A DNA stretch of 64,000 bases from Thermoplasmata archaeon. Lineage in GTDB: Archaea; Thermoplasmatota; Thermoplasmata; RBG-16-68-12; SOIM01. Below, piece by piece: positions 16,401 to 60,353 of the stretch (the stretch's first letter is position 1; every line of letters begins with the position of its first letter). The notes below the pieces were generated by a model that saw nothing but the letters and a program-made list of their open reading frames with translations, ran no database searches and was not told the DNA's origin. The stretch covers positions 193,146-257,145 of the forward strand of contig JAGLME010000001.1 of NCBI GenBank assembly GCA_023140195.1, given 5' to 3'. The position numbers and the translations under genes were made by a program.

Positions 16401-17478
16401 GGCCGACAATACTGCGCCTCAAATATCCAATATCCTGAAGGTTCCCAGCCCGGTGGAGATCTTCAACATCATCAACATATCGGCTTCTGTAACTGACAAC
16501 TACGCTGTTCTCTCAGTGAACCTTGACATTGTCGCGGTGGATAATTTCATCATGACCATTGATCCGGGAAGCGGACGGTACTACCACGAGCACGAGTGCC
16601 AGATGCTGGGTCCGCACGATTTCACGATAACGGCATCGGACACATCAGGGAACTTGGCATCCGAGCAGGGGCAGTTCTACGCCATGGATACTGAGCCTCC
16701 GCAGATAGTACACACTCCGCCTTCTCGGGTAGAGGTCGGCTCCACGATAGACTTCCAGGCTACTGTGACGGATAACTACATGGTCGACAGCGTCTGGCTG
16801 AACTACACCGACGCTTCCAGCATTCATTTCAATGTCTCGATGACATCCCTTCCGGGGAACGTCTACCAACTCACTCTTCCAGTTCAGAACCAAGCTGGAC
16901 AGGTGGTTTACCACATTTATGCCAAGGACCTTGCCACCAACGGCGCTGTCACAGCGGTTCTTCAAGTATCGGTTGTTGACACCACTGATGATCTAGCTCC
17001 AATGCCTCCGTGGGGGTTGGTAGCAGAAGAAGGTCCCAATGGGGTTATTACCGTCCTGAGTTGGAGCAAGCCTGTTCTTAACGAGGATATGACCCTTTTG
17101 GATGATCTTGCTGGTTATCACGTATATCGGTCGGAGTCCGAAACAGGTCAGAAGACCCGGATCAACCCGGTCCTCGTGGAGACCACGGCCTTCATCGATG
17201 ATGACATCGAGAACGGAAAGACATACTATTACTGGGTCACGGCCATAGATGAATCCGCTAACGAGTCGGATTTCTCCACCCCTGCGGACATCTCATTTGG
17301 TTCAGAGGCAACTGGCGTTTCGTATGACATAATCCTGATACTCCTGGCCATCATAATCACCGTGGTCCTGTTGATCGCTGTTCTCCTCTGGCGAAAGAAG
17401 AAGGGTGAAGCCTCCGAAGAGCAGCAAGTGGAGGATAACGAAGAACCGACGTTCGAAGAGGAGACGGAACTCGAATAG
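13447..17478 (+). CDS. giant cell-surface protein: signal/TM, PQQ beta-propeller, tandem Ig-like repeats, FN3 domain, C-terminal TM anchor
   Basis: It has an N-terminal hydrophobic segment (MWALAVVIALLASSLIALW). PQQ/BamB-like repeats span aa ~90-450. Three ~100-aa internal repeats start PPEITNIQASPSPQEVFF / APQISNILKVPSPVEIFN / PPQIVHTPPSRVEVGS, each with a TD(L/N)Y core. A C-terminal FN3-like domain (YHVYRSE...YYYWVTAIDESANES) precedes a TM helix and an acidic tail. Confidence 0.6.
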   Translation: MVVTMTSANRHGVSKMWALAVVIALLASSLIALWMTSPQGDAGLGATAFPDEPGTHPLGSSGDDPRPTGTTLFPWPMQLHDELHRSYTSAPAPDSSAVLWSNATGPSTYGSPSVADGKVFIGARTPIGDRMFAFHQDNGTQAWSTPTVQPVSGGLGVTSSPAYSDGLVVFGGDRIYCLWASNGTVKWTVNTGNRNWGDGTPTIADGKVFIGGSDRKLYAIDLDTGTVLWTHQTLSILGTNYGLYSAPAIYNGHAYLPACDGWVYQILIDQPGPIAVVNHSYNTGSSMYGSPVIFDNKVYIGNGYTFNNVNNRFYALDATDLSLVWEFYPGSGTSFLGSAAIAYDKLFVGSVDGNLYVLDPYGGGGSTTIIWQYSIGQTWSSPAVSSGKVFIGSKSNFLYAFDVNQTGPPTYLWRYNTNGNVDSSPAIADGVLFIGSHGNGGMIYAFGQGGDVISPFPISVSPTGTGVPVNTDIVVVWSEVMDWTSVEASFSYTDMSTIWTSADGTFNHYPVNRTSIFNPFVDLDFSTTYWVTFSSVAIDLAGNPLDGDGNGAGGDDLVWSFDTVIDNSPSLNLWEPGSTSGQSYTVGTMVLIVWEASDDASWPNGGNVINLTYGVSPFGGTTISQYELEDGSFNWDTTGEPLGTYYVNVTAYDSLGQVSGSYSNFSFDIVAIPDSPPTVSLTAPVGGLSWSGGTSINIDWTMSDDITLVQNLNVYLNYSSSSGSGPIAGPLTGLSSPSSYPWALPLLDATDVVVLIDVIDESGNVGFDSSAQFEVDSTPPILDSHSPWIDETNVATNANINIEWREGMNAAATEASFSLQDNATWTLVSAVFSWGGPNITMSFNPDADLAPNSWYTANFTTAAKDDSQPGNNLAFYSWSFLTAAVPDSLPPEITNIQASPSPQEVFFPVWINASITDLYGIAEAHVEVFDPSLALIGNFTMQYDSGNDYFFARNYDMLGVHNCTISSMDNNGNWAQTSSGCSFEMADNTAPQISNILKVPSPVEIFNIINISASVTDNYAVLSVNLDIVAVDNFIMTIDPGSGRYYHEHECQMLGPHDFTITASDTSGNLASEQGQFYAMDTEPPQIVHTPPSRVEVGSTIDFQATVTDNYMVDSVWLNYTDASSIHFNVSMTSLPGNVYQLTLPVQNQAGQVVYHIYAKDLATNGAVTAVLQVSVVDTTDDLAPMPPWGLVAEEGPNGVITVLSWSKPVLNEDMTLLDDLAGYHVYRSESETGQKTRINPVLVETTAFIDDDIENGKTYYYWVTAIDESANESDFSTPADISFGSEATGVSYDIILILLAIIITVVLLIAVLLWRKKKGEASEEQQVEDNEEPTFEEETELE

Positions 17479-26102: not shown

Positions 26103-28784
26103 ATGGATTGGAGGTATGAAGTGTCGAAATCCAAGAAATTCATTCTGTGGTTCAAGGAAATAAGAAAGAAGGATGTTCCTCTCGTCGGCGGAAAGGGTGC
26201 CTCTCTAGGAGAGATGATTGCGAATCTCAAAGGAGTTCCAGTCCCAAACGGTTTCTGCGTGACCACTGTTGCATATCGTCAGTTCCTGAAAGAGACTGGA
26301 TTGGACAAGTTCATTCAAGATGTTCTGTCAGACCTGGACACACATGATGTCAAGAACCTGCAGGCCAGGGGCGGGAAGATCCGGAAAGCGCTCCAGGCCG
26401 CTGATATGCCCAAGGAAATCGTATCGGAGACTAAAGAGGCGTACAAGACACTCTGCAAGATCACTGGCGTGAAGAACGTGGACACGGCGATTAGGAGCAG
26501 CGCCACGGCCGAGGACCTCGCGGACGCCTCCTTTGCGGGACAGCAGGAGTCATATCTCAACGTTTCCGGGGGAGATGACGTTGTCAGAGCAGTCCAGAAC
26601 TGCTTCGCGTCCCTGTTCACCGACAGGGCGATATCCTACAGGGAGGACAAGGGCTTCTCCCACTTCGATGTGTACCTGTCTGCCGTGGTGCAGATCATGG
26701 TCCGTTCAGATCTCGCGAGCAGCGGGGTCATATTCAGCCTAGATACCGAGACCGGCTTCCGCAACGTGGTCTTCATCAACGGCGCATACGGGCTGGGAGA
26801 GTACGTCGTTCAGGGCACCGTCAATCCTGATAACTTCTATGTTTTCAAGTCCACCGGCAAGGTAATCGACAAGAAATTGGGTCTCAAGGACAGGAAGCTG
26901 ATCTATGCACCCTCCGGCACCGGTGTCGTGGACAAGGAAGTGGCCGAGAAGGACAGGAACAAGTTCATCATCACAGACGCTGAAGCCGAGAAACTGGCGA
27001 AATGGGCGGTATCAATCGAGAAGCACTACAACGTGCCCATGGACATCGAATGGGCGAAGGACGGGAGGACAGGAAAGCTGTACATCGTTCAAGCCAGGCC
27101 CGAGACGGTTCACGCCATAAAGAAGGGTACCGAGCTCATAAGCTACAAGATTCCGAAGAAAGGGAAGGTGTTGATCAGAGGAGAAGCAATAGGTAGGAAG
27201 GTCGGACAAGGAAGGTCAAACCTGATACACTCCGTCAAGGACATGCACAAGTTCAAACCGGGAGAGGTCCTCGTTACTAGGTCCACAAATCCGGACTGGG
27301 AGCCGATAATGAAGAAGGCGGCTGCCATAGTAACGGACACGGGCGGCAGGACATGCCACGCGGCGATCGTCTCAAGGGAACTTGGCGTTCCATGCATAAT
27401 CGGTACAGAGAGTGGTTCTGAATCAATCCCACACAACAAGGACATCACAATTGACTGTTCGGAAGGCTTGGGTATGGTGTACGAGGGACTTCTGGACTAT
27501 ACGATTGAATCCACTGAGGTCGAGAAGTTGCCCAAGACCAAGACCGCGATCATGATGAACGCCGGGATCCCGGAGACCGCGTTCCAACAGGGTCAGCTGC
27601 CGAACGACGGGGTCGGCCTGGCAAGGGAGGAGTTCATCATCAACTCTCACATCCAGATCCATCCACAGGCGCTGCTGGATTATGACAAACTGAAGAGATT
27701 CGTGAAGAGAGGGTACAAGAAGGACATCGAGAATCTGAGGAAGGGAGACCTGGACAAGGCAGCCCAGAGGGAAGAGAAGGAACATGTGCTGGCCAAGAGG
27801 GAGTACTACCAGGATGCGCTGAGAGAGATCGACGACCTCACCAAGGGCTACAAGGACAAGACCCAGTTCTTCATCGACAAGCTGGCGTACGGGATCGCAA
27901 GGATAGGCGTCGCCTTCCACCCGAACGACGTCATCGTAAGGCTCTCGGATTTCAAGACCAATGAGTATGCCAACCTAATCGGCGGGAAGTACTACGAACC
28001 CCATGAGTCGAACCCAATGATCGGATACCGAGGTGCCAGCAGGTATTACTCAAAGGAGTTCCAGGCGGCCTTCGCACTGGAGTGCAAGGCTCTGGTCATC
28101 GTGCGAGGACGGATGAAGATAAAGAACATCGTGGCGATGGTTCCGTTCTGCAGGACGCCGGAGGAAGGGCGAAGGGTCATCAAGCTCATGGCCAGGAACG
28201 AGCTCAAGCAGGGCAAGGACGGCTTCCGGGTCTACGTCATGTGCGAGATCCCGAGCAACGTGATTCTTGCGGACGAGTTCTCAAAGGTATTCGACGGGTT
28301 CTCCATCGGGAGCAACGATCTCACCCAACTCACGCTGGGTCTGGACAGGGATTCCGAACTGGTATCCCACCTCTTTGATGAAAGGGACGAAGCGGTCAAG
28401 AGAATGCTTGCCAGCGTCATCGAGGCCGCCAGGAAGAACAAGAGGAAGATAGGCATCTGCGGGCAGGCGCCATCGGACTGGCCTTCGATAGCCGCGTTCC
28501 TGGTGGAGAAAGGCATCAACAGCATATCATTGAACCCGGACACCATCGTGAAGACCAGGGCGTTCGTATACGCGACCGAATGGGCCCTGAAGAACCGGAA
28601 GAGCATCTTCCAGCTGACCGAGAACCAGATAAGGGCGATCCCGGAACTCAAGGAACCCATGAAGACCACTGTCGTATCTGTCATGTGGAAAAAAGGAAAG
28701 AGGACCGAGTCCAGGAAGACCTCCCGAACGCCCCTTTCCGAGTTCGTCATAAATATGAGGAAGCAGGAGAAGCTCCCGACCTAG
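26103..28784 (+). CDS. ppsA: phosphoenolpyruvate synthase (pyruvate, water dikinase)
   Basis: VPLVGGKGASLGEM (N-terminal ATP-grasp), the phosphohistidine region TDTGGRTCHAAIVSRELGVPCIIG, and the C-terminal PEP-utilising domain FSIGSNDLTQL are present. A ~70-aa basic C-terminal extension makes it longer than typical (893 aa). Confidence 0.85.
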   Translation: MDWRYEVSKSKKFILWFKEIRKKDVPLVGGKGASLGEMIANLKGVPVPNGFCVTTVAYRQFLKETGLDKFIQDVLSDLDTHDVKNLQARGGKIRKALQAADMPKEIVSETKEAYKTLCKITGVKNVDTAIRSSATAEDLADASFAGQQESYLNVSGGDDVVRAVQNCFASLFTDRAISYREDKGFSHFDVYLSAVVQIMVRSDLASSGVIFSLDTETGFRNVVFINGAYGLGEYVVQGTVNPDNFYVFKSTGKVIDKKLGLKDRKLIYAPSGTGVVDKEVAEKDRNKFIITDAEAEKLAKWAVSIEKHYNVPMDIEWAKDGRTGKLYIVQARPETVHAIKKGTELISYKIPKKGKVLIRGEAIGRKVGQGRSNLIHSVKDMHKFKPGEVLVTRSTNPDWEPIMKKAAAIVTDTGGRTCHAAIVSRELGVPCIIGTESGSESIPHNKDITIDCSEGLGMVYEGLLDYTIESTEVEKLPKTKTAIMMNAGIPETAFQQGQLPNDGVGLAREEFIINSHIQIHPQALLDYDKLKRFVKRGYKKDIENLRKGDLDKAAQREEKEHVLAKREYYQDALREIDDLTKGYKDKTQFFIDKLAYGIARIGVAFHPNDVIVRLSDFKTNEYANLIGGKYYEPHESNPMIGYRGASRYYSKEFQAAFALECKALVIVRGRMKIKNIVAMVPFCRTPEEGRRVIKLMARNELKQGKDGFRVYVMCEIPSNVILADEFSKVFDGFSIGSNDLTQLTLGLDRDSELVSHLFDERDEAVKRMLASVIEAARKNKRKIGICGQAPSDWPSIAAFLVEKGINSISLNPDTIVKTRAFVYATEWALKNRKSIFQLTENQIRAIPELKEPMKTTVVSVMWKKGKRTESRKTSRTPLSEFVINMRKQEKLPT

Positions 28785-34380: not shown

Positions 34381-35253
34381 TCAAATGGTCCTCGCACCGC
34401 GGTTGTCCACTTCGCATCTTATTACCTTGCCAAAACGCTTCAAGATGTTCTCGAGTATCTTTGTCTCTCCACTGGCAAAGACCGAGTTCCCCAGCATGGA
34501 CATCCCCGCATAGCCGTATTCTGCGCAGCTTTCGATGGCCTCCAATATCTTCTCCGTCGCCAATCCTGCATCCTTCGCAAAATCCTCGCTGAGTATGAAC
34601 AACCTCTCAAAATCCGGATTTGAGATGAATGAACCCACACGTTCCCTCCCGGAACGGTTGATCCTCTCCACCGCTCTCCTGTCCTGGAGGACCTCTCGTG
34701 TATCCAGGTCTCCTCCCAGAATACACAGGACCACGTCCTGTTCGACCTCAGTCTTCTTCACCATTCCATATGGAGGGGCACCTGGCGATTCCCTGACGAC
34801 CAATCCCCCGGTTGCCTGAGGGTAAACGTCACCGAGCCCCGTAAGGGATTCCACCTCAGCGATATGGGCGATGCGGACAAGGTCCTCGGTTGTTTGATCG
34901 GATTCAGTGGCATCAGCAAGGGCAATGACAGTACTGAGTGCACCTGCGCCGCTCATGCCTAACCCCTGCGAGACAGGTAGTTCGTTCAATGTATCCACCG
35001 TCACCCCCAGCTTCCGACTGCCCAGCCATTTCCTCACCGCCAGTTCGGTCACGGTGTTCTCGACCAATCGGTGCTCGACATAGACAGACACCTCCTGATC
35101 AGCGGAGTCGGAGACCTCCACCGTGGATACGACACCCTTAGAAAGACACAGCCCAACTCCTCGTGACCCCTTCTTCAAAATGTCCGGGTCATCGATTATC
35201 TCAAAAAAGGCGGTGATGTGGCCGGGGCAGAATGCTGTGGACTTAGATGCCAT
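34381..35253 (-). CDS. GHMP-family kinase, probable archaeal pantoate kinase (PoK)
   Basis: The GHMP motifs PGHITAFFE and PVSQGLGMSGAGALS are present. The start overlaps coaBC, and synteny with CoaBC is typical of the archaeal CoA pathway. Archaeal shikimate kinase is the alternative. Confidence 0.5.
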   Translation of the reverse strand: MASKSTAFCPGHITAFFEIIDDPDILKKGSRGVGLCLSKGVVSTVEVSDSADQEVSVYVEHRLVENTVTELAVRKWLGSRKLGVTVDTLNELPVSQGLGMSGAGALSTVIALADATESDQTTEDLVRIAHIAEVESLTGLGDVYPQATGGLVVRESPGAPPYGMVKKTEVEQDVVLCILGGDLDTREVLQDRRAVERINRSGRERVGSFISNPDFERLFILSEDFAKDAGLATEKILEAIESCAEYGYAGMSMLGNSVFASGETKILENILKRFGKVIRCEVDNRGARTI

Positions 35254-36442
35254 TCAGGACAGCACTCCAAATCTCGTTAGCTATCTGTGACTTGGGTCCC
35301 TTGATCACCTTGGTCTTCCCCTTCTTGTCAATGATTGTGACCTCGTTGGAGTCCGGCTTCACCAGGTTGATGTCATTCGCGACTATGAAATCCAGTTTTG
35401 CGGCCCTAATCCTCTCCTTCCCCCTTGATATGAGGGTCTTCTTTGGAACGTTGGATTCCAGCTTGAAGGCTATGAGCTTCATCTTCTTCCTGTTGCGACG
35501 GATTTCTTCTATTATCTTGGGTGCTCTTATCAGGTCCAGTGATATCGATTTCTTCGACGAGGATATTTTCCCTTTGGTCTTCCTTGGGATGTAGTCGGAT
35601 ATTGCTGCGGGTACGATACAGATGTCGGACTTGATCTTGCGGACCATGTCCACCAGCTCGGAGGAGCTGGAGAACCTCTTGGTCTTGATGAAACTTGGCA
35701 ACTCGCAGGTGGCTCCACCCATCAACAGTTCAACATCGGCGCCTCTCTCGAATGCATCCAGGGCAAGTTCAACACCCGTTCGCCCTGAGCTTCTGTTGGT
35801 CAGGACACGAACATCGTCCACGGGTTCTTCTGTCGAACCAGCTATGACTGATACCTTCTTCCCGTGCATGTCTCTTGGACCCAGAGTTCTTATGACTGAC
35901 GACACGATTTGGTCCGAGAAAGCGATCTTGGCCTTGGACTCCTGGAGCCTCGGCTGAACGAAGTCGATTCCCAGATTCTTCAGCTTCCTGATGTTCTCAT
36001 CGATTATCGGTTGGTCGTACAGTGAGATGTGCATTGCTGGCACGATCATGATTGGTGTCTTGGAACCTAAGGAGGTGACTGCGAATATGGATACTGTGGA
36101 ATCTGTTATTCCATGGGCGATCTTCGATATGGTATTGGCAGTGCAAGGGGCTATCAGCATGAGATGCGCAATGCCGTCCTCCCCGCAGAGGTCAACGTAC
36201 GGTACCGACCCATCTATCTCGGTTATTGGCTTGTGCCCGCTGGCGAACTCCATGCTAATCGGATTTATGATCTTCTGTCCCCATTCGGACATTACTGGAA
36301 CAACGTTTGCCCCGTGGCGAATCAGCTCCCTAGCAAGTTTGACGCATTCGGTTGCAGCTATGCTACCAGTGATTCCCAGAACGATCGTCCTGTTTCTCAG
36401 TTTCTCGCTCTTCTGGCAGTATATTCTCTGACTTGGATGCAC
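35243..36442 (-). CDS. coaBC: bifunctional phosphopantothenoylcysteine decarboxylase / phosphopantothenate-cysteine ligase
   Basis: The N-terminal flavoprotein IVLGITGSIAATECVKLARELIRHGANV is present. The C-terminal CoaB domain carries GSTEEPVDDVRVLTNRSSGRTGVELA and DFIVANDI. Confidence 0.8.
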   Translation of the reverse strand: MHPSQRIYCQKSEKLRNRTIVLGITGSIAATECVKLARELIRHGANVVPVMSEWGQKIINPISMEFASGHKPITEIDGSVPYVDLCGEDGIAHLMLIAPCTANTISKIAHGITDSTVSIFAVTSLGSKTPIMIVPAMHISLYDQPIIDENIRKLKNLGIDFVQPRLQESKAKIAFSDQIVSSVIRTLGPRDMHGKKVSVIAGSTEEPVDDVRVLTNRSSGRTGVELALDAFERGADVELLMGGATCELPSFIKTKRFSSSSELVDMVRKIKSDICIVPAAISDYIPRKTKGKISSSKKSISLDLIRAPKIIEEIRRNRKKMKLIAFKLESNVPKKTLISRGKERIRAAKLDFIVANDINLVKPDSNEVTIIDKKGKTKVIKGPKSQIANEIWSAVLNGI

Positions 36443-44498: not shown

Positions 44499-44571
44499 TG
44501 CCCGGGGAGGGAATCGAACCCCCAAAGAACCGATCTGCAGTCGGTCACATTAGCCACTCTGTCACCCGGGC
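44499..44571 (-). tRNA. tRNA-Cys (anticodon GCA)
   Basis: The reverse complement folds as a cloverleaf: the acceptor stem GCCCGGG/CCCGGGC, the anticodon stem ACCGA/TCGGT with loop CTGCAGA (GCA), a T-arm containing GTTCGATTC and a discriminator A. CCA is not encoded. It lies 16 nt upstream of the cysS start. Confidence 0.8.
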
Positions 44572-44645
44572 TTGGGGTAGCGGTTGCTATTATTATCATG
44601 GGTAATTAAGGTTTTTACAGTGGCCTTTGTTCCATCATATGGATG

Positions 44646-51374: not shown

Positions 51375-51773
51375 TCAGACCTCAAGGAGCTCCTTCACCC
51401 ATGAGTAGAATCTTTCTGTTTCCTTCAAAGCAACGTCCGCGATCTTCCTTGAGAGAAGGGTTTCAGTATACTCAGCTTTCGTCTTCTGGCTGAGCACATT
51501 GGAAAACTGTTTCATTTTTGAAGAAATCACACCGCTTTCGAAGGGCAATTGGCGAAGTAGCGGGAGGACATCAGAGTGTCTTTCACCGGTGCTTCTTATG
51601 CCGAGATAGAAGACGAGAAGGGCATCGGCCGAGTTGATGCAGCAGTGAACAGAGTTCCCCACAGCCGAATTCCAATGTTCCCTTTCAAGGGCATTCTTCG
51701 CGGACTGGAGATATTCGTCCGCCTTCTGTAGAAAATTCCGATACTTCGATTTGGAGACTTTCCGGGTTCTCAT
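51375..51773 (-). CDS. HEPN-domain protein (toxin of HEPN-MNT pair)
   Basis: The ~130-aa all-helical protein carries an R-x4-H motif (RSTGERH). It overlaps the upstream MNT gene by 4 nt. Confidence 0.6.
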   Translation of the reverse strand: MRTRKVSKSKYRNFLQKADEYLQSAKNALEREHWNSAVGNSVHCCINSADALLVFYLGIRSTGERHSDVLPLLRQLPFESGVISSKMKQFSNVLSQKTKAEYTETLLSRKIADVALKETERFYSWVKELLEV

Positions 51774-52366
51774 AGCAGCTCCTCCAAAGACCTCCCACGT
51801 ACGTGAATATGGCTCTTTTTGGTTTCCTCGATCAGGCCTGAGTTTTCCGAACGCTTCAGCTCAGATGGACTAAGAACCAGAGCGGATAAGGGGTTGCCGT
51901 AGGCCTTGGATATTACAAGTTGAAGCCTGCCGATTATGTCCATCACTTCTCTTTTCTTACTGGTAACCACGAGCACGTCGATGTCGCTCGAGGTCTCTTC
52001 CTCGCCGCGAGCGACACTTCCGAATAGAAAAACCGAAGCTGAGGTACCCTCGAAAGCTTTTCCGATTCTCCGAACTAGTTCTGACCGCGCACCAGACTCA
52101 CCTTCGAAAAGGGGCTGGAGATCCTCGATCAATGGAGATTCTTTGTTCAACGAGATGACGTAGGCTCTCCCGTGGGAGGATATGGTGACGAGGTTGAAGG
52201 CTTCGAGTGCTTTCAGAGCTTTGAGAGCGCCAGGATGCGAGAGGTCAGCGAATGAGGCGAGCTCTCTTCCGGTGAAACGGCGATCTGGATAGCGAAGGAG
52301 GATCCTGAGAACGGATGTCTTGGCAGGGGATGCGATTAGATTCTCGACGTAGTTCTGGAATTTCAT
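51770..52366 (-). CDS. minimal nucleotidyltransferase (MNT) with N-terminal winged-helix domain
   Basis: The NTase motif LFGSVARGEEETSSDIDVLVV (GS-x9-13-DxD) follows an N-terminal HTH (FTGRELASFADLSHPGALKALKALE). Confidence 0.65.
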   Translation of the reverse strand: MKFQNYVENLIASPAKTSVLRILLRYPDRRFTGRELASFADLSHPGALKALKALEAFNLVTISSHGRAYVISLNKESPLIEDLQPLFEGESGARSELVRRIGKAFEGTSASVFLFGSVARGEEETSSDIDVLVVTSKKREVMDIIGRLQLVISKAYGNPLSALVLSPSELKRSENSGLIEETKKSHIHVRGRSLEELL

Positions 52367-52614: not shown

Positions 52615-53139
52615 TCATACATACCGCATTTCTTGAAGTTTTTCCAAAACCCTCTTCGCGCTCTCCTCTGGCGTCTCATTCTCGGTATCCACCACAACCT
52701 CCGGATTCTCCGGTTCCTCGTAGGGGTCCGAAACACCTGTGAAGTTCTGTATTTCGCCGGACAACGCCTTCTTGTAATGACCTTTCACGTCCCTCTCAAT
52801 GCATTCATCGACAGTGCATTTCACGTACACTTCAACGAAGTTGCCTACCATTTCCCTTGCGCGACGCCTGAAGTCACGGAAGGGAGATATGAGACCCACT
52901 ATGGCTATGACACCGTTCCTCGAGAGGAGCTTGCTCACATACGCCACCCTGTTGGCATGGATCTGCCTGTCTTTCTTGCTGAACCCGAGCTTTGGGCTGA
53001 GATTTTCCCTGACCTCGTCTCCATCCAGGACTTCCACCATCCTTCCAGCGTCACTCAATCTCTTTTCCAGAATCCTAGCAATCGTCGTCTTCCCTGATCC
53101 GGGAAGTCCTGTCAACCAGACTACGCAACCTCTCTCCAT
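52615..53139 (-). CDS. cysC: adenylyl-sulfate (APS) kinase
   Basis: The P-loop WLTGLPGSGKTT and LDGDEVRENLSPKLGFSKKDRQIHANRVAYVSKL, which matches the APS-kinase LDGDNIRxGLxxDLGFSxxDRxENIRR motif, are present. It is ~174 aa. Confidence 0.75.
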   Translation of the reverse strand: MERGCVVWLTGLPGSGKTTIARILEKRLSDAGRMVEVLDGDEVRENLSPKLGFSKKDRQIHANRVAYVSKLLSRNGVIAIVGLISPFRDFRRRAREMVGNFVEVYVKCTVDECIERDVKGHYKKALSGEIQNFTGVSDPYEEPENPEVVVDTENETPEESAKRVLEKLQEMRYV

Positions 53140-53140
53140 G

Positions 53141-54517
53141 TTACCACTCTATGACTTCTCCTTTCATGTCCTCTGGAATTGGAATTTCCATCGCTTTCAG
53201 AATCGTGGGTGCAATATCCAATATGCTCTTTTGGCCAATATCTCTTCCTTGGTTCTCCTTCGGATCGTATATCAAGAACACTCCTTGCCAATCGTGAACC
53301 GCATCATCGGGCCCCTTATCGTTCTCTGGCAGGTACATTGAGCCGTGTCCGATGGTCCCTGCCGATCTCCAGGACAGGTCATCGAAGAACACCATGAGGT
53401 CGGGTGGGTCTCCGTTGCATATGTTGTACGTCTCCTCAGGTTTCAGGACCATGTTCTTCATCCCAATTCCCTGCGGGTCCTTTATCTCCATAATCCTCGT
53501 GGATATCTCGTCTCTGATTTCATCGTACTCGCTCGGAGGAACGATGCCTTGAGCTTCCCTGCCTTTCAGATTGATGAATATCCTTGCGTAGTAACCGCCC
53601 CAGCCCCATGCTCTGGTCCTGCTCCAGTCGATGTCCGCTTTCTCCAGATCCGTGACCTCTTCCGGGCTCTTCCTCAGCTTGAGATAACCTTGCTCCATCA
53701 GCCACTCGTTGACACAGAAGCATCCTTTCATTGCCTTTGCGCCATGGTCAGACACGATGAATACGATGGTGTCATCATCGATTATCTCGAGAAGCTTGCC
53801 TATCTCCTTGTCCAGATACTCATAGTAGTCCTTTATTGCGCTCTGAAACCTGTTGCCAGGTTCGTGAAGGTGATGTGTCGGGTCGTGGTATTTCCAGAAC
53901 CCATGCTGCAACCTGTCCAAGCCGATTTCCACGAAGAAGAAGAGGTCCCATTCCTTGTTTTCCAGGAGATAACGTATGACTCTGAACCGCTTCTCGGTCA
54001 TCTCATAGATCCCTTCCAGAACCTGGTCCTTCTCATCGGTCCTGAACACAACGTCGAACAGGTACTCTCCAACCAGGTCCTCTATCTCGTGCTTGAGCTC
54101 CGGGGGGTGTGTGAATTGCCTGTTGGTGTCTGGAGTCATGAAGCCTGAGATGATGTGTCCGTTGATGGGCTCGACCGGATATGAGGGCGGCAGACCGATG
54201 ACCGTGGATTTGAGGCCGTTGTCTCCGAGAATGTGCCACAATGCCTTTTCCTTCAGTTTGTCCCTCGTTGCGAGCCAGATATCAGTGTATGAGTTGTTCC
54301 TCCTGTGCCTGAAGCCGTAGAGCCCCAACCTTCCGGCATCCTTTCCTGTGACCATGGACAACCATGCGGGGATCGTGATAGGCGGTATGATCGTTCTTAG
54401 CTTTCCATGAACTCCTTTCCCCATCAGCCTCCGAATGTTGGGCAAGTCATCTATGAACTCTTCGAATAAGAGTTTGGGCGAAGCGCAATCCATTCCTATT
54501 ACCAGAACTTTCTTCAA
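53141..54517 (-). CDS. type I phosphodiesterase / nucleotide pyrophosphatase (NPP, alkaline-phosphatase superfamily)
   Basis: VIGMDCAS is present. PPITIPAWLSMVTGK matches the NPP nucleophile motif PTxTxPxxxSxxTG. The metal ligands FIVSDHGA and the C-terminal HDW-type His are also present. Confidence 0.6.
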   Translation of the reverse strand: MKKVLVIGMDCASPKLLFEEFIDDLPNIRRLMGKGVHGKLRTIIPPITIPAWLSMVTGKDAGRLGLYGFRHRRNNSYTDIWLATRDKLKEKALWHILGDNGLKSTVIGLPPSYPVEPINGHIISGFMTPDTNRQFTHPPELKHEIEDLVGEYLFDVVFRTDEKDQVLEGIYEMTEKRFRVIRYLLENKEWDLFFFVEIGLDRLQHGFWKYHDPTHHLHEPGNRFQSAIKDYYEYLDKEIGKLLEIIDDDTIVFIVSDHGAKAMKGCFCVNEWLMEQGYLKLRKSPEEVTDLEKADIDWSRTRAWGWGGYYARIFINLKGREAQGIVPPSEYDEIRDEISTRIMEIKDPQGIGMKNMVLKPEETYNICNGDPPDLMVFFDDLSWRSAGTIGHGSMYLPENDKGPDDAVHDWQGVFLIYDPKENQGRDIGQKSILDIAPTILKAMEIPIPEDMKGEVIEW

Positions 54518-55528
54518 TCAGGTTGCCTCCAACAGTTTCAGGACCTCATTCTGGAAGGCCTCATTCTCATCACTGGGGACAATCGCTCCCATGACCTCCC
54601 TCTTTCCGCCTGAGACGTGTCCTTTTCCCTGGGCCATGTCGAGAATGGGTTTCAGATCCAGATGGACATCACTCGTTCTCACGTACACTCTATCGTACTC
54701 TTCGAAGAATCTGGTTTGGATCACTAGGGACGTTCTCACATCCTTCTTTCTTGACAGCTTCCTGGAAACAGCCGAGATAATGTCATAACTGGAGGAGAAC
54801 TCGTGAACCAGGATGCCCTTTGTAGGTGGATTTGCATTTATCTCTTGGATGGCTATTCTCTTCTTCACCTTTTCAGCATTCTCAATCCAGGTTTCGTTCG
54901 TCAATAGTGATTGAGGGTCATCTTGGTGTTCAAGCACAAAAGAAACAGCCTCCTCTATGGCCGAAACATCACCAATCCTGTAGTTCGAGTCAATCAGTTC
55001 AGTCATTCGAAGAAGCTCTTCGAGGGTGAGCCTTGCTGATTGCAGGTATTTCTCCATGCTGGGATATACAGCATTCTCGCGTATGTTCCGCTCCTTGTCT
55101 CCGACAGCTCCCAGTACCGTCAGGAGATCCAAGGGAGTTTTCCATAGTTCTGAAAGCACCCATGTGGTCGAAGGATAGTTATCAGATGGCGACCCACGGG
55201 CCACCGGATTGAATTGATGCAGATCACTTCTCTTCTTCTTCGCGTGATGGTCAAACACCCAGATATCTGAGGACAATCCTACCAGCCGATCGAAATCATT
55301 CTCTGGGAGGGCAAGATCTGCGACGATTATTGCATCGAATCCTTCGTTCTCGATGTTCACGAACTCTTCATCGGAGAGAGAATACATCCCTATTCTGGGA
55401 ACCATGGTCTTGACGGAAGAACCTTCGAGGAAACCTGTGATTATGGCTGCTGAGCATATGCCATCCGTATCCCAGTGGTGGAGGATGAGTGTCTTCCCCG
55501 ACTCCTTGAGCTTCTCGAATCCTTCCAT
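54518..55528 (-). CDS. DHH-DHHA1 phosphoesterase, NrnA-like (nanoRNase / pAp phosphatase)
   Basis: Motif I (LILHHWDTDGICSAA), IVADLAL, DHH (VFDHHAKKK) and the DHHA1 region GKGHVSGGK are present. Confidence 0.6.
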   Translation of the reverse strand: MEGFEKLKESGKTLILHHWDTDGICSAAIITGFLEGSSVKTMVPRIGMYSLSDEEFVNIENEGFDAIIVADLALPENDFDRLVGLSSDIWVFDHHAKKKRSDLHQFNPVARGSPSDNYPSTTWVLSELWKTPLDLLTVLGAVGDKERNIRENAVYPSMEKYLQSARLTLEELLRMTELIDSNYRIGDVSAIEEAVSFVLEHQDDPQSLLTNETWIENAEKVKKRIAIQEINANPPTKGILVHEFSSSYDIISAVSRKLSRKKDVRTSLVIQTRFFEEYDRVYVRTSDVHLDLKPILDMAQGKGHVSGGKREVMGAIVPSDENEAFQNEVLKLLEAT

Positions 55529-55533
55529 CTGAA

Positions 55534-56646
55534 CTACTCCACGAACGGGTTCTTGTCCGCAAGGAGGATTTCCGCTATTTCCTCTCTCATCAACTCTTTC
55601 TGGGGGCAGTCTCCCTTTTCAATGGACTCCCTGATGGCAGTGCCACTGAACTTGATGTGATGTTCCTCACCATGAGGGCAGGTCTTCTCGTTGGCGATTC
55701 CTCCGCATTTGTTGCAGTGGAAGAATGAAGAGAAGAACATGGGCACGATGCCTAGGTCAGGGAATTCATCGAACATGTCCTGTGCTGCGTATGGGTCGTA
55801 GAAGGACCCCACGCCAGCGTGATCTCTCCCAATGATGAAATGTGTGCATCCGAAGTTCTTTCGCATTATTGCGTGGTGTATGGCCTCCCTTGGGCCTGCG
55901 TACTTCATGTCCGTTCTTAGGATTGATAGGACGGCCCTCTCTCGGAGGAAGAAGTCTTTGATCAGGCGATCGTAGGACTCCAGGATAAGCTCGTCTTTGA
56001 AGTCGCCTTTCTTCTTCTTTCCGATTAGTGGGTTTATGAAGACGCCATCCGCGAATGTGAGCGCGGTCCTCTGGATCCATTCGTGACCCAGATGTGGTGG
56101 GTTTCGGGTCTGGAAGCCAACGATGGTTCTCCACCCCTTCTCTCGGAAGAGGATTCTGGTTTCAGCCGGGCTTAACTTGAACCTATCGTATGTTGACTCC
56201 TCTTCTTTGACTAGGTCTATGTCGCCACCCAGGAATACATCTTCGAGGTTCAGTGTTCTGGCGACACCGGGATGCTGCGGGTCGTTTGTCCCAAAGACCT
56301 TCTCGGCGATTTCCTTCTTGTTGAATCTGTATTTCTCCTCGATGCGCAATAATGCAGTGATGTTGTTTTGAGGATCCGTGACCAGGCATTCATCACCTTC
56401 CATGATATTGGCTGACTCGTTCTCTGATATATCGAGAAGAACCGGGATGGTCCAAGGAGTGTCGTCTGGCAGTCTTCTTTCATTCAAGATACTTGCCAAT
56501 TCATCTTGCCGAAGGAACCCCTCAAGCGGACTGAAGATCCCTGCCGCTATGTTCGCTGCATCGATCAGTGTCTCTTCCTTTCTCACCAGTTGATGGAACT
56601 CAGTTTCTCCGGAAAAGATTCTTTTCCTCTCATTTTCACTGAGCAA
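55534..56646 (-). CDS. sat: sulfate adenylyltransferase (ATP sulfurylase)
   Basis: QTRNPPHLGHE (the QTRN/HxxH motif), the GRDHAGVG motif and overall ATP-sulfurylase length and order are present. Confidence 0.8.
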   Translation of the reverse strand: MLSENERKRIFSGETEFHQLVRKEETLIDAANIAAGIFSPLEGFLRQDELASILNERRLPDDTPWTIPVLLDISENESANIMEGDECLVTDPQNNITALLRIEEKYRFNKKEIAEKVFGTNDPQHPGVARTLNLEDVFLGGDIDLVKEEESTYDRFKLSPAETRILFREKGWRTIVGFQTRNPPHLGHEWIQRTALTFADGVFINPLIGKKKKGDFKDELILESYDRLIKDFFLRERAVLSILRTDMKYAGPREAIHHAIMRKNFGCTHFIIGRDHAGVGSFYDPYAAQDMFDEFPDLGIVPMFFSSFFHCNKCGGIANEKTCPHGEEHHIKFSGTAIRESIEKGDCPQKELMREEIAEILLADKNPFVE

Positions 56647-56693
56647 TCTATCAATGAGTCTTCCACCGTGTGGTCTTGGCGTGTCAATCCCCC

Positions 56694-56921
56694 TCAGTCA
56701 AGATAACCCAGTGCTCTTAGCCTGTCCTTTATGCGCTCCTCGTCCTCTTTTGAGAAGGGTTGCTCTTCATCAGGTTCTTCTGTTATGACTTCTCTGAGGA
56801 CGTAGGCCACGTAGCTCGATACCGATGTGAAGCCTGTTCCTTTTATTCTATCCTGGATCTTCTGGAACAGAGGCGTGGGTATCGAGACGGTCGTGAATTT
56901 CTTCTCTTCCCCCTTCTTCAT
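56694..56921 (-). CDS. ribbon-helix-helix (CopG/Arc/MetJ-like) DNA-binding protein
   Basis: The N-terminal beta-strand KKFTTVSIPTPLFQKI (typical RHH strand 1) is followed by two helices and an acidic tail. It is the first gene of the sat operon. Confidence 0.5.
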   Translation of the reverse strand: MKKGEEKKFTTVSIPTPLFQKIQDRIKGTGFTSVSSYVAYVLREVITEEPDEEQPFSKEDEERIKDRLRALGYLD

Positions 56922-56933
56922 GAAATCGCCTGT

Positions 56934-56947
56934 AATTATATATAATT
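56934..56947. promoter_or_regulatory. perfect 14-bp palindrome AATTATATATAATT between TATA box and ATG of RHH regulator
   Basis: It reads the same on both strands and sits 13 nt upstream of the RHH ATG, which is the expected place for an RHH operator overlapping the TSS. Confidence 0.35.
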
Positions 56948-56963
56948 AGAAAAGGAAAATCCC

Positions 56964-57201: not shown

Positions 57202-58278
57202 ATGATATGCGTAGTCGTGGGCACCCGACCCGAAATCATAAAAATGGCCCCTATCGTCATTGAACTTCAGAAGAGAAGAAAGGAATTCAGAATCGTACAT
57301 ACTGGTCAGCATTATGATTTGGAACTGTCCCAAGTGTTCTTCGATCAGTTGGATCTGCCCAAGGCGGACCATTTGCTTGATATTGGCTCCGGGACTCAGG
57401 CGAACCAAACGGCTACTGCTCTCATCAGATTGGAAGAGGCCTTTCTGAGAGAAGGGCCAGATTTGATTCTCGTTGAGGGTGATACAAACAGTGTTCTTGC
57501 AGGGGCATTGGCCGGAGCCAAACTCGGTATCGACGTCGGCCATGTTGAGGCAGGTCTGAGAAGCCATGACATGCGGATGCCAGAAGAGCACAATCGCAGG
57601 TTGACGGATCATCTCTCCCGCCTGCTCTTTGCCCCGACGGATTGGGCCGCTTCAAATCTGAGAAAGGAATCTGTTTGGGGGGATGTGTTCGTTACTGGGA
57701 ATACTGTCATAGATGCTTGCCTTCACTACATGCCGCTTGCTCTGAAGGAATCGGAGATCTTGGAGAAGGTGAAGTATGATGAATTCGCTCTGGCAACTGC
57801 TCACAGAGCTGAGAATGTAGACGATCCCCATGTCATGAGGAGTTTTGTGAGGATACTGACTAAATGTCCCACGCCCGTTGTCTATCCTCTTCATCCAAGA
57901 ACCAGAAAGAGGTTGAAGGAGCAAGGCCTCTTGAAAGGACTATCAGAGTCAGAGAATGTACAGATTATCCCCCCAGTGGGATACTTTGACTTTCTTGTCC
58001 TTATGAGGAACTGCAGGTTCATCCTGACAGATTCCGGTGGGATTCAGGAGGAAGTGACCGCCCCCAATATCAGAAAGAGGGTCTTCGTATTGAGGCTGTC
58101 CACTGAAAGGCCAGAGGCAGTTGAAGCGGGTTTTGCTGAGGTTGTCGGTCTGAATGATGACGAAGTACTGCAATCCATTGAAGCCTACTTAGGACGTCCT
58201 GAGCAACTCCGAAAGGAGTGTCCTTATGGGTCAGGAAATGCTGCGGAAAGGATAGTGACTATCCTTGAGAGAGATTGA
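57202..58278 (+). CDS. wecB: UDP-N-acetylglucosamine 2-epimerase (non-hydrolysing)
   Basis: ICVVVGTRPEIIKMAPI, HTGQHYD, EGDTNSVLAGALAGAKLGIDVGHVEAGLRS and the C-terminal GNAAERIV are present. Confidence 0.8.
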   Translation: MICVVVGTRPEIIKMAPIVIELQKRRKEFRIVHTGQHYDLELSQVFFDQLDLPKADHLLDIGSGTQANQTATALIRLEEAFLREGPDLILVEGDTNSVLAGALAGAKLGIDVGHVEAGLRSHDMRMPEEHNRRLTDHLSRLLFAPTDWAASNLRKESVWGDVFVTGNTVIDACLHYMPLALKESEILEKVKYDEFALATAHRAENVDDPHVMRSFVRILTKCPTPVVYPLHPRTRKRLKEQGLLKGLSESENVQIIPPVGYFDFLVLMRNCRFILTDSGGIQEEVTAPNIRKRVFVLRLSTERPEAVEAGFAEVVGLNDDEVLQSIEAYLGRPEQLRKECPYGSGNAAERIVTILERD

Positions 58279-58503: not shown

Positions 58504-59013
58504 CTATGCTGTGTGTAATATGTTGAAGCTCCAGTAGACTAGATATCCATATTCTGGCGTGCATGTACCTTCATCGCATGTATATCCCTTGCCTGGGTAG
58601 TGGATGAAGATATCACCGTGATTTGTGCCCTTGCTTGCATCTTCGTTGATGAAAGATGTGAATTCCGCATATCCGTACCAGGTGCCTTGGACATCCATAT
58701 ATGGCACTCCTTCTTGGTCTGGATGGGGGACGAATTCCCTTCCCACAGTTGGTGGCTCATAATCCTCGAATCCTCCTGGTCGAGCCTTGGGTGGGCTGGT
58801 ACTTCTGTACTCAATTGAGATGACGTAGTAAGTCGCCACCCAGCGGCAGGCTTCCAGTTCGAAGTTAACACGAGCATCTTCAACATACGTCCCCTCGACC
58901 TTCACTCCTGTCTTGAAGTTCACGACCTTCTCCAGAGTTGCTACTGATCCATAGCTCATTACCGGAGCGGCTAGCATAAATGCAGCCAATAGTGCCAACA
59001 GTATCCTTTTCAT
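58504..59013 (-). CDS. secreted ~17-kDa Cys-containing protein, paralogue A (unknown function)
   Basis: It has a signal peptide (MKRILLALLAAFMLAAPVMSYG) and four conserved Cys. It shares ~60% identity with 59838..60353. GGAGGTGA lies 7 nt before the ATG. Confidence 0.6.
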   Translation of the reverse strand: MKRILLALLAAFMLAAPVMSYGSVATLEKVVNFKTGVKVEGTYVEDARVNFELEACRWVATYYVISIEYRSTSPPKARPGGFEDYEPPTVGREFVPHPDQEGVPYMDVQGTWYGYAEFTSFINEDASKGTNHGDIFIHYPGKGYTCDEGTCTPEYGYLVYWSFNILHTA

Positions 59014-59837: not shown

Positions 59838-60353
59838 TCATGCACTTCGGTGGTGTATGTTAAAGCTCCAATATACCAGATATCCATAGTCAGGCTCGCA
59901 ATTCTGATTATCGGAACAGGTGTATGGCGTGTCAGGGTAGTGGATTATGATGTCGCCGTGGTTGATACCGTGCTTTGCATCTGGGTTGATGAATGATGTG
60001 AATTCTGCATACCCGAACCAAACTCCCATTTGATCCCAAAAGGGCACTTCTTCTTGGCCTGGATATACCACGAAGTCTCTGCCTACAGTCGGCGGATCAT
60101 GATTCAGGAATCCTCCCGGTGCAGCGTGCCATGGTGTTGTGTGTCGGTACTCGATTGAGACCTCGTACAACTGAGCAACCCAGCGGCATGATATGATCTC
60201 CCACTCGACGCGGGCATCGTCAACATACGATGCGTCTTCCTTAATACCCGTATCATAGTCTACGACCTCTTCGATGGTTGCCACGGTGCCAAAACTCATA
60301 AACGGAATAGCCATAAGCGAGGCAGCCATTAGAGCGAACAGTAGCTTCTTCAT
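59838..60353 (-). CDS. secreted ~17-kDa Cys-containing protein, paralogue B (unknown function)
   Basis: It has a signal peptide (MKKLLFALMAASLMAIPFMSFG). The conserved blocks ARVxxExxxCRWVA, IEYR, PPTVGR, YGYAEFTSFIN, NHGDIxIHYP, YTC and YGYLVYWSFNI are shared with paralogue A. Confidence 0.6.
   Translation of the reverse strand: MKKLLFALMAASLMAIPFMSFGTVATIEEVVDYDTGIKEDASYVDDARVEWEIISCRWVAQLYEVSIEYRHTTPWHAAPGGFLNHDPPTVGRDFVVYPGQEEVPFWDQMGVWFGYAEFTSFINPDAKHGINHGDIIIHYPDTPYTCSDNQNCEPDYGYLVYWSFNIHHRSA

Follow-up and report, generated by a model that had tools for sequence, protein, structure and literature searches.

A conserved sulfate-activation module with an NPP-fold enzyme, AlkP, as a candidate PAPS-dependent sulfotransferase in archaea and bacteria

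In Methanothermococcus thermolithotrophicus, the genes for ATP sulfurylase (ATPS), adenosine 5'-phosphosulfate (APS) kinase (APSK), and MtPAPP, a phosphatase of 3'-phosphoadenosine 5'-phosphate (PAP), are clustered and are followed by a dissimilatory-type reductase of 3'-phosphoadenosine 5'-phosphosulfate (PAPS), which feeds the sulfite reductase Fsr (PMC10322725). In Halobacterium salinarum, genetic evidence identified Agl30 and Agl31 (VNG1056C/VNG1057C), members of the alkaline-phosphatase superfamily, as N-glycan sulfotransferases (PMC11980604). In metagenomic surveys, anaerobic archaea and bacteria are often reported to carry sat and cysC but neither a PAPS reductase nor a sulfotransferase, and the use of PAPS in these organisms has been puzzling. 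Here we analyze an operon of a Thermoplasmata archaeon within a 64,000-nucleotide stretch of contig JAGLME010000001.1 (positions 193,146 to 257,145, forward strand). This whole stretch is referred to as the window, and positions are counted from its first base. In the operon, the genes for sulfate activation enclose a gene for a protein, here called AlkP, with the fold of the nucleotide pyrophosphatases/phosphodiesterases (NPPs), and AlkP is a likely candidate for the missing consumer of PAPS.

The operon lies on the minus strand at 52615–56921. Its five open reading frames (ORFs) are separated by gaps of 1, 0, 5, and 47 nt, as an original prediction made from the window had described (five genes, 0–47 nt apart), and in order of transcription they encode a putative ribbon-helix-helix (RHH) regulator, an ATP sulfurylase (Sat), a DHH-family PAP phosphatase (PAPP), AlkP, and an APS kinase (CysC). 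The locus resembles that of M. thermolithotrophicus in having clustered genes, the same types of Sat and APS kinase, and a full-length homologue of MtPAPP. It differs from that locus, for which neither an NPP-fold gene nor an RHH protein was reported, in that an NPP-fold gene lies between those for the phosphatase and the kinase and no reductase was found in the window. We consider it somewhat more probable than its negation that the locus is a self-regulated sulfation module, in which Sat and CysC would make PAPS, AlkP would use it, PAPP would clear the PAP, and RHH would regulate its own operon. That AlkP founds a new and widespread class of sulfotransferase, with an NPP fold, a threonine nucleophile, PAPS (or APS) as donor, and a conserved acceptor, is a tentative proposal to which we give slightly less than an even chance.

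An NPP-fold protein in a conserved sulfate-activation module

AlkP (53141–54517, minus strand) is a 458-aa protein that matched the type I phosphodiesterase/NPP family PF01663 with 161.4 bits (cut-off 23), whereas the sulfatase family PF00884 matched only a 43-residue stretch with 26.7 bits. Its AlphaFold2 (AF2) model had a pLDDT of 96 and a pTM of 0.93. The nearest solved folds found by Foldseek were those of ENPP1, ENPP6, ENPP3, and the Xanthomonas NPP (probability 1.0, E ~1e-17, TM ~0.6, 13–16% identity), so that the structural neighbors of AlkP are NPPs and not sulfatases; the matching structures included NPP3 crystallized with UDP-GlcNAc (6f30). A search of the PDB with the single AlkP sequence gave no matches, and a profile search gave weak matches to NPPs only.

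The residues D10, T48 (in the motif PPITIPAW), D201, H205, D257, H258, and H408 were invariant in 92 AlkP orthologues. As judged from the sequence comparisons, they correspond to the two-metal site and the threonine nucleophile of the NPPs, which would make AlkP a bimetallo-enzyme with Thr48 as nucleophile; T48 aligned with T90 of the Xanthomonas enzyme (Xac NPP) in the profile search. For the second block of metal ligands the profile alignment offered D212 and H215. These were rejected in favor of D201 and H205, because only the latter are kept in the paralogues described below and because they fit the strand-then-DxxxH geometry of the AF2 model. Ten paralogues encoded near the module kept nearly all of the catalytic set, one having Ser at the position of T48 and one being truncated at its N-terminus. 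The residues R70, H71, R159, K261, R312, R384, E398-N399-D400, and D404 were invariant among the orthologues and not present in the paralogues, and this largely cationic shell would fit a polyanionic nucleotide such as PAPS. The sequence GFRH occupies the place of the Asn (N111) that binds a phosphoryl oxygen in NPP, and the specificity of AlkP may differ from that of NPP accordingly.

No signal peptide or long hydrophobic segment was obvious in the AlkP sequence, and we therefore take the protein to be cytoplasmic. A Pfam scan of AlkP found no canonical sulfotransferase domain (PF00685/PF13469). The NCBI record of an identical protein begins at Met9 and has 450 aa; a TTG codon at 54517, which follows the DHH stop codon without a gap, gives 458 aa. 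The TTG start is the more likely one, because homologues conserve the preceding N-terminal strand KKVLVIG. Proteins identical to AlkP were also found on metagenomic contigs of runs SRR13892585 and SRR13892586 and, at 100% identity, in an NCBI record of a metagenome-assembled genome of a Thermoplasmata archaeon.

A protein search with AlkP returned 6505 relatives. The top 120, which were 55–60% identical to the window protein, came from Asgard lineages, Bathyarchaeia, Hydrothermarchaeota, Verstraetearchaeota, Baldrarchaeia, and one bacterium (Mobilitalea). A scan of one genome per GTDB species placed relatives in at least 554 genomes, with carriers that included Asgard archaea, Bathyarchaeia, Thermoplasmatota, Nitrososphaeria, Hadarchaeota, Archaeoglobaceae, Aminicenantes, Anaerolineae, Omnitrophota, and Latescibacterota; Desulfotomaculum copahuensis, a cultured sulfate reducer, is also a carrier. 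A library-wide HMMER search gave 3566 cluster representatives of the wider family at E < 1e-30.

The 80 best AlkP loci, which are not phylogenetically independent, were then compared by searching their six-frame ORFs with the proteins of the window, and the presence of each gene was counted where the flanking DNA was long enough. Almost all of these loci, which represent at least 15 lineages at the level of phylum or class and include Asgard archaea, Bathyarchaeia, Thermoplasmatota, Nitrososphaeria, Hadarchaeota, Aminicenantes, and Anaerolineae, had the order RHH-Sat-(PAPP)-AlkP-CysC; an order shared by about 80 loci of so many lineages is not a chance arrangement. Near AlkP, RHH was present in 58 of 62 loci, Sat in 57 of 67, CysC in 63 of 74, and the PAP phosphatase in 8 of 62. 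AlkP is thus the constant core of a conserved RHH-Sat-AlkP-CysC module in which the DHH gene is optional. The original prediction had called the NPP gene unusual in this setting, which these counts contradict. It had also raised the conservation of the order Sat-NrnA-NPP-CysC, which holds, with RHH added, for Sat-AlkP-CysC in nearly all 80 loci but not for the DHH gene. We found no description of the module, or of a link between an NPP and Sat or CysC, in the searchable literature. Both the sulfate-activation genes and the PAP phosphatase are of known kinds; no paper found in these searches reports the RHH-Sat-AlkP-CysC module with its fusions and operator, or that AlkP alternates with a sulfotransferase.

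Several lineages carry AlkP fused to the enzymes of sulfate activation, and the following fusions were confirmed with Pfam: Sat-AlkP in L052 and L056 (Anaerolineae) and in P0251; AlkP-CysC in P0019, P0022, P0033, D. copahuensis (L029), and Desulfocucumis (L012); and CysC-AlkP in P0261. A 915-aa ORF in L079 was rejected as a further fusion; it has no Sat domain and is an artifact of upstream ORF extension. Other fusion partners were a family 2 glycosyltransferase (GT2), a sugar nucleotidyltransferase (NTP_transferase-AlkP), a methyltransferase, a second copy of AlkP, and a pyruvate-kinase (PK) barrel. The PK fusions of AlkP relatives were P0288 (1151 aa) and P0356 (786 aa), one of which is an AlkP-PK-Sat triple fusion. 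They might regenerate ATP for sulfate activation or serve other chemistry, such as APS + Pi -> ADP.

Divergent PF01663 paralogues of 430–600 aa were encoded near the module in L003, L004, L005, L007, L063, L066, L077, L084, L087, and L091, with up to three in L077. Where measured, they were ~28–34% identical to AlkP and kept the catalytic core without the orthologue-specific residues. Seven loci contained PF00884 proteins without the formylglycine motif (C/S-x-P-x-R). Either group could represent further, acceptor-specific transferases.

PAP phosphatase and the occupant of the AlkP position

The DHH protein (54518–55528, minus strand) had one sequence match in the PDB, chain 8a8k_A, which is MtPAPP of M. 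thermolithotrophicus (phmmer E = 4e-34, residues 12–319). MtPAPP is a fast and highly specific enzyme that converts PAP to AMP and phosphate (Jespersen et al. 2023, PMC10322725), and its Mn ligands are H6, D8, D10, D57, H76, H77, and D127 (PMC10322725). The corresponding motifs of the window protein, HHWDTDG, ADL (equivalent to Asp57), DHH, and GAVGD, all aligned with MtPAPP. The Pfam match to the DHH family (PF01368) was marginal (29.3 bits, just above the cut-off), no Pfam match to DHHA1 was obtained, no NrnA chain was among the PDB matches, and NCBIfam gave weak N-terminal RecJ matches only. MtPAPP itself does not align beyond the DHH motif with other DHH-family proteins such as NrnA (PMC10322725). 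On sequence grounds we therefore assign the protein as an orthologue of the archaeal PAP phosphatase MtPAPP and not as NrnA: the PAP phosphatase function originally predicted stands, and the NrnA-like, DHH/DHHA1 label does not.

The presence of a dedicated PAP phosphatase implies that some reaction releases PAP, and AlkP is the only candidate for that reaction in the operon. The possibility that AlkP is itself a PAP phosphatase was rejected as the main explanation, since the dedicated enzyme accompanies it in the operon of the window and in about 13 others.

Because the selection of the 80 loci by AlkP could bias the picture, the contexts of ten homologues of the PAP phosphatase were examined as a second set of loci. 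AlkP was present in the order RHH-Sat-PAPP-AlkP-CysC in L085 and L088 and in the order Sat-PAPP-AlkP-TauE-CysC in L084 and L092. The order in L087 and L091 was RHH-Sat-PAPP-X-CysC, where X is a canonical sulfotransferase of 183–187 aa. L083 had Sat-PAPP-CysC and no AlkP, followed by a sulfate symporter, a Sulfotransfer_1 gene (~2.4 kb downstream), a glycosyltransferase (GT), and an NTP-transferase; L090 had Sat-PAPP-CysC on a contig that ends soon after; and in L086 and L089 the PAP-phosphatase homologue stood alone. Some operons found through PAPP are therefore without the NPP gene, whose absence from orthologous operons was to have counted against the original prediction, and it is a canonical sulfotransferase that is found there instead.

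Protein X of L087 and L091 matched PF00685 with 42.9 and 30.3 bits (cut-off 22) and PF13469 with 40.4 and 28.7 bits (cut-off 27). SULT-like 5'-PSB and 3'-PB motifs were present in it, and the L087 protein has the loop ERSGTS. The operons with and without AlkP can be closely related: L085 (AlkP) and L087 (sulfotransferase) were 96% identical in RHH, 91% in CysC, 86% in Sat, and 78–80% in the flanking NAC and GNAT genes. The PF01663 genes located elsewhere in L087 and L091 are paralogues (29–33% identity). Between L087 and L091, the sulfotransferases were 78% identical, whereas Sat and CysC were only 56–58% identical; this difference suggests that the position received its sulfotransferase gene by lateral transfer. 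No homologues of the L087 and L091 sulfotransferases were found in the 80 AlkP loci by phmmer and a relaxed motif search. The replacement of AlkP by a nonhomologous protein at the same position in close relatives indicates an equivalent function and, together with the need for a source of PAP, makes AlkP the best candidate for the PAPS consumer.

Regulator, operator, and surrounding genes

The two PAPS-forming enzymes were identified as the original prediction had them, with curated cut-offs passed and active-site motifs present. Sat (55534–56646, minus strand) is an ATP sulfurylase of the homo-oligomeric type, with PUA_2 and catalytic domains (PF01747, 289.7 bits; PF14306, 139 bits), which makes APS and PPi. 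It scored 481.2 with NF003166 (cut-off 387) and 356.5 with TIGR00339 (cut-off 322.95), and its translation contains FQTRNPPHLGH and IIGRDHAGVG. CysC (52615–53139, minus strand), the APS kinase that makes PAPS, scored 201.6 bits with PF01583 and 215.8 with TIGR00455 (cut-off 138.7) and contains the P-loop GLPGSGKTT, LDGDEVR, and GLISPFR.

The first gene of the operon (56694–56921, minus strand) encodes a 75-aa putative RHH regulator of the CopG/Arc/MetJ type, labeled as CopG-family by NCBI and as Arc/MetJ by JGI; it had no Pfam match above threshold. It has 1874 homologue clusters and is 55–96% identical across archaea and bacteria; the regulator is as conserved as the enzymes. The consensus was ..TTVSIP..L..KI.ERIKGTGF.SVSSYVTYVLRE, an acidic linker, and F..E.EEKVK.RL.ALGYID, and the C-terminal helix of the window protein ends in RLRALGYLD. 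The AF2 monomer was extended at residues 9–15, with helices at 16–25 and 34–46, a disordered acidic linker at 47–57, and a helix at 58–70. An RHH fold with an extra C-terminal element would fit this model if, as expected, the strand forms only in the dimer. In L084 (3074–3715) and L092 (183–821), the RHH of the module is the C-terminal third of a 212–213-aa protein, which has a second weak RHH-like/DUF7557 signal in its N-terminal part and an uncharacterized middle.

A perfect palindrome, TAATTATATATAATTA (TAATTA-N4-TAATTA; 56933–56948, not assigned to a strand), lies 12–27 nt upstream of the RHH ATG; the 64 kb contain no other exact match to this motif. Another 18 archaeal loci have exact copies, which in many cases are tandem and with few exceptions immediately precede the RHH gene. 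We predict from this distribution that TAATTA-N4-TAATTA is an RHH operator at the regulator's own promoter. In L005 and L027 the motif also occurred upstream of a gene for a TauE/SafE-family transporter, which may import sulfate as part of the regulon, and a TauE gene was inserted within the operon in L004, L084, and L092. The bacterial loci had no obvious copy of the motif, and upstream of the longer RHH proteins of L084 and L092 the sequence was ATAATACTATATATTTCTATAATA and not TAATTA-N4-TAATTA. The only other operator-like site of the window, TTATCATGGGTAATTA (44593–44608, plus strand), has two mismatches and lies ~20 nt from the gene for tRNA-Cys (44499–44571). It is probably a chance occurrence, because 6 of 100 shuffles gave at least two matches.

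The genes for WecB (57202–58278, divergent to the operon; TIGR00236, 378 bits), a family 4 glycosyltransferase (GT4), and a radical-SAM protein adjoin the operon, the last two lying beyond WecB and two small, probably secreted paralogues; this adjacency to glycan genes had been correctly described. The two paralogues, of 169 and 171 aa (58504–59013 and 59838–60353, minus strand), are located between WecB and GT4. Both have signal-peptide-like N-termini (MKRILLALLAAF... and MKKLLFALMAAS...), a conserved C-terminal YGYLVYWSFNI motif, and no Pfam match, and they could be glycoprotein substrates.

Sugar-nucleotide and glycosyltransferase genes recurred around the module. In Aminicenantes and related bacterial loci, CysC was followed by a TviC-like UDP-HexNAcA 4-epimerase and by TviB/WecC-like nucleotide-sugar dehydrogenases. 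The short-chain dehydrogenase/reductase (SDR) beside the bacterial CysC was considered as a UDP-sulfoquinovose synthase and rejected, as it scored best as a TviC-/GalE-like epimerase and only weakly on the SQD1 model. Asgard loci carried a heptose-nucleotide pathway and SDR enzymes, with GmhA, GmhB, kinases, transketolase, and transaldolase read from representative sequences only. The loci of Bathyarchaeia and D. copahuensis contained NTP-transferases, GT2, GT4, and PF00884 proteins without C/S-x-P-x-R. An Asgard glycoproteomics paper reported no sulfated sugar in an Asgard archaeon; the sole sulfated sugar was the sulfoquinovose of the Sulfolobus controls.

Pfam scans of the window ORFs, a few of 130–170 aa being left out, found no PAPS or APS reductase, sulfite reductase, or Sulfotransfer domain, in agreement with the earlier statement that no reductive partner is present. 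A CysH-type PAPS reductase was found nearby in 1 of the 80 loci, next to Sat in L066 (Nitrosothermus). Other PP-loop ORFs near the module were rejected as PAPS reductases: that of L070 is an NAD synthase, and those of Aminicenantes (e.g., L058) are QueC-like. The module is also present in dissimilatory sulfate reducers (D. copahuensis, Archaeoglobaceae). Because the module occurs in sulfate reducers, because only one locus in 80 had a PAPS reductase, and because genes for sugar nucleotides and glycosyltransferases repeatedly lie nearby, the operon is better explained by sulfation than by assimilation, as had been proposed.

Other genes of the window were noted as well. Directly downstream of CysC is a nucleotidyltransferase/HEPN gene pair (51375–52366, minus strand; PF01909, 198 aa, and PF05168, 132 aa, with a 4-nt overlap), which is a typical MNT-HEPN toxin-antitoxin module outside the conserved sulfation module; the pair is also present on an identical metagenomic contig (L001). 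An 893-aa pyruvate phosphate dikinase (PPDK) is encoded at 26103–28784 (plus strand) and could regenerate ATP from the AMP and PPi of a sulfation cycle. CoaBC (Dfp, 399 aa) adjoins a 290-aa GHMP-kinase-like protein, which may be an archaeal pantoate kinase (34381–36442, minus strand); CoA metabolism is another source of PAP. A cluster of genes for eukaryote-like and surface proteins (78–776, 7442–8782, 8855–10141, 5883–7559, and 13447–17478, all plus strand) includes a Ras/Roc-type small GTPase, a WD40 beta-propeller, an FG-GAP repeat protein, and two PQQ-like beta-propellers, one of 1343 aa with Big_5 domains.

Function of AlkP and comparison with known systems

In the mechanism that we propose, Sat would convert sulfate to APS and CysC would convert APS to PAPS. 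AlkP would then consume the PAPS and release PAP. Most likely the sulfuryl group would pass to an acceptor in the cytoplasm that is conserved and is probably a nucleotide-sugar or glycan precursor. The MtPAPP-type DHH enzyme would degrade the toxic PAP to AMP and phosphate, and RHH would bind TAATTA-N4-TAATTA over its own promoter and control the operon. Within AlkP, Thr48 activated by one metal could act as the nucleophile on the PAPS sulfur, with the other metal stabilizing the leaving 5'-phosphate, and the resulting sulfo-enzyme would be resolved by a hydroxyl of the acceptor. By analogy this chemistry is plausible for the alkaline-phosphatase superfamily, with no precedent in its NPP branch. 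AlkP is most likely a PAPS-consuming sulfuryl-transfer enzyme; we infer the use of PAPS (or APS), transfer in preference to hydrolysis, and the nature of the acceptor.

Several points weigh against this proposal. We know of no NPP-fold enzyme with a threonine nucleophile that is a sulfotransferase. Enzymes of this fold usually attack phosphorus, and with PAPS or APS as substrate that reaction would do no more than free sulfate. Enzymes that tailor glycans are rarely as conserved between domains as AlkP (55–60% identity), and the flanking sugar pathways vary by phylum, so that a single conserved acceptor is not obvious. AlkP was kept without a nearby CysC in five Bathyarchaeia loci, and without both Sat and CysC in five bacterial loci. 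The AlkP-PK and AlkP-PK-Sat fusions suit the driving or recycling of nucleotides equally well. The TauE transporter was also inserted in the same intergenic region, so that sharing of the position alone is no proof of equal function, and the PAP-phosphatase sample was small (8 operons) and its members are not phylogenetically independent.

The native reaction of the NPP fold suggests one alternative: with the fold and catalytic set of the nucleotide pyrophosphatases/phosphodiesterases, for which attack at the 5'-phosphate is native, and with its tight linkage to Sat and CysC, AlkP could hydrolyze APS or PAPS to AMP or PAP and sulfate, as a safety valve or proof-reader against toxic or inhibitory APS or PAPS. 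We consider this unlikely. An enzyme that burned ATP futilely would hardly be conserved more than any other member of the module, or be fused to the makers of its own substrates, and hydrolysis leaves unexplained the replacement by a canonical sulfotransferase, the fusions to GT2, NTP-transferase, and methyltransferase, and the retention of AlkP without Sat and CysC. The original prediction had suggested proof-reading for the NPP protein; because a canonical sulfotransferase takes the place of this protein in some operons, and because it is found fused to Sat, CysC, GT2, a sugar nucleotidyltransferase, and a methyltransferase, that role is less likely than the consumption of PAPS. Similarly improbable is a by-product hydrolase, an inorganic pyrophosphatase or ADP/NDP-ase that would pull Sat and other nucleotidyl transfers while sulfotransferases are encoded elsewhere. 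The fusion partners Sat and NTP_transferase both release PPi, the PK fusions suggest nucleotide recycling, fusions of APS kinase, ATP sulfurylase, and pyrophosphatase are known in eukaryotes, high conservation suits a generic small substrate, and the organism has PPi-linked metabolism (the PPDK described above). Yet AlkP stays with CysC in the absence of Sat (L028, L029, L070) and accompanies only RHH and UDP-sugar enzymes in the five bacterial loci mentioned, a soluble pyrophosphatase would drain the PPi pool of PPi-dependent organisms, operons with PAPP would be left without a source of PAP, and neither the alternation with a sulfotransferase nor the GT2 and methyltransferase fusions would be explained. 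A PPi-generating cycle of Sat, AlkP (APS + Pi -> ADP), and pyruvate kinase was set aside as a minor possibility only, as it leaves CysC and PAPP unexplained.

Loci with RHH-AlkP-TviC-TviB, which have no Sat or CysC, fit an enzyme that acts on nucleotide sugars or phospho-sugars (a UDP-sugar pyrophosphatase, sugar-phosphate transferase, or phosphomutase) and shares with the sulfate genes only regulation and neighborhood. Neighbors that handle UDP-GlcNAc recur (WecB in the window, TviB-/TviC-like proteins after CysC in bacteria), the NPP3-UDP-GlcNAc structure (6f30) is among the fold matches, and the alkaline-phosphatase superfamily has many phospho-group transferases and mutases. We nevertheless regard such an activity as doubtful: the Sat and CysC fusions in several lineages argue for a direct link to sulfate, it is a PAPS sulfotransferase that replaces AlkP, and AlkP hardly changes while the flanking sugar pathways differ by phylum. 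Finally, the operon could serve assimilatory sulfate reduction as in M. thermolithotrophicus, with the reductases elsewhere in the genome and AlkP as an accessory. The trio of ATPS, APSK, and an MtPAPP-type enzyme is the front end of that pathway (PMC10322725), and L066 has its CysH-type PAPS reductase next to Sat. This reading is very unlikely, however, since no reductase was found in the 64-kb window or in 79 of the 80 related loci, the module is carried by sulfate reducers, which produce sulfide and would have no use for assimilation through PAPS, glycan genes surround it, and the alternative occupant of the AlkP position is a sulfotransferase.

Taken as the PAPS-consuming sulfotransferase that we propose, the AlkP family, found in at least 554 species genomes and provided with its own regulator and operator, would be the likely missing consumer of PAPS. 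It would then explain the orphan sat and cysC pairs of Asgard archaea, Bathyarchaeia, Thermoplasmatota, Aminicenantes, and others without reductases or canonical sulfotransferases, and sulfated glycans or metabolites would be expected in uncultured lineages, Asgard archaea among them. With the P-loop-like sulfotransferases and the sulfatase-like Agl30/31 as the first two, the family would also be the third structural type of enzyme for biological sulfation. D. copahuensis is a cultured source of an AlkP-CysC fusion.

The fusions and tight coupling of the module recall the bifunctional PAPS synthases and Sat-CysC fusions of animals, fungi, and some bacteria (NF004040), in which coupling serves channeling; the module differs in that the third partner is an NPP-fold enzyme. 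To our knowledge, such a partner has not been described in fusions of the PAPS-synthase type. AlkP shares with the NPPs (Xanthomonas NPP, 2gsn; ENPP1, ENPP3, and ENPP6) the fold, the predicted two-metal site, and the putative Thr nucleophile. Its identity to them is only 13–16%, and unlike them it appears to be cytoplasmic, is ~75 residues longer than Xac NPP, has GFRH in place of the Asn and many additional invariant Arg, Lys, Trp, and acidic residues, and is tied to sulfate activation rather than to extracellular nucleotide hydrolysis.

With Agl30 and Agl31, AlkP has in common the alkaline-phosphatase superfamily and an archaeal glycan context, and those proteins show that the superfamily can supply sulfotransferases. 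Agl30 and Agl31 belong to the sulfatase branch (PF00884), their nearest structures being glycosaminoglycan and ulvan sulfatases, whereas AlkP, a member of the NPP branch with a predicted Thr nucleophile, is linked to Sat and CysC. The canonical PAPS sulfotransferases of L087 and L091 are P-loop-like proteins of about 185 aa that use neither a metal nor a covalent intermediate, and AlkP, a predicted metalloenzyme of 458 aa, is unrelated to them in sequence and fold. The two nevertheless occupy the identical position in RHH-Sat-PAPP-X-CysC, and both are unusually conserved.

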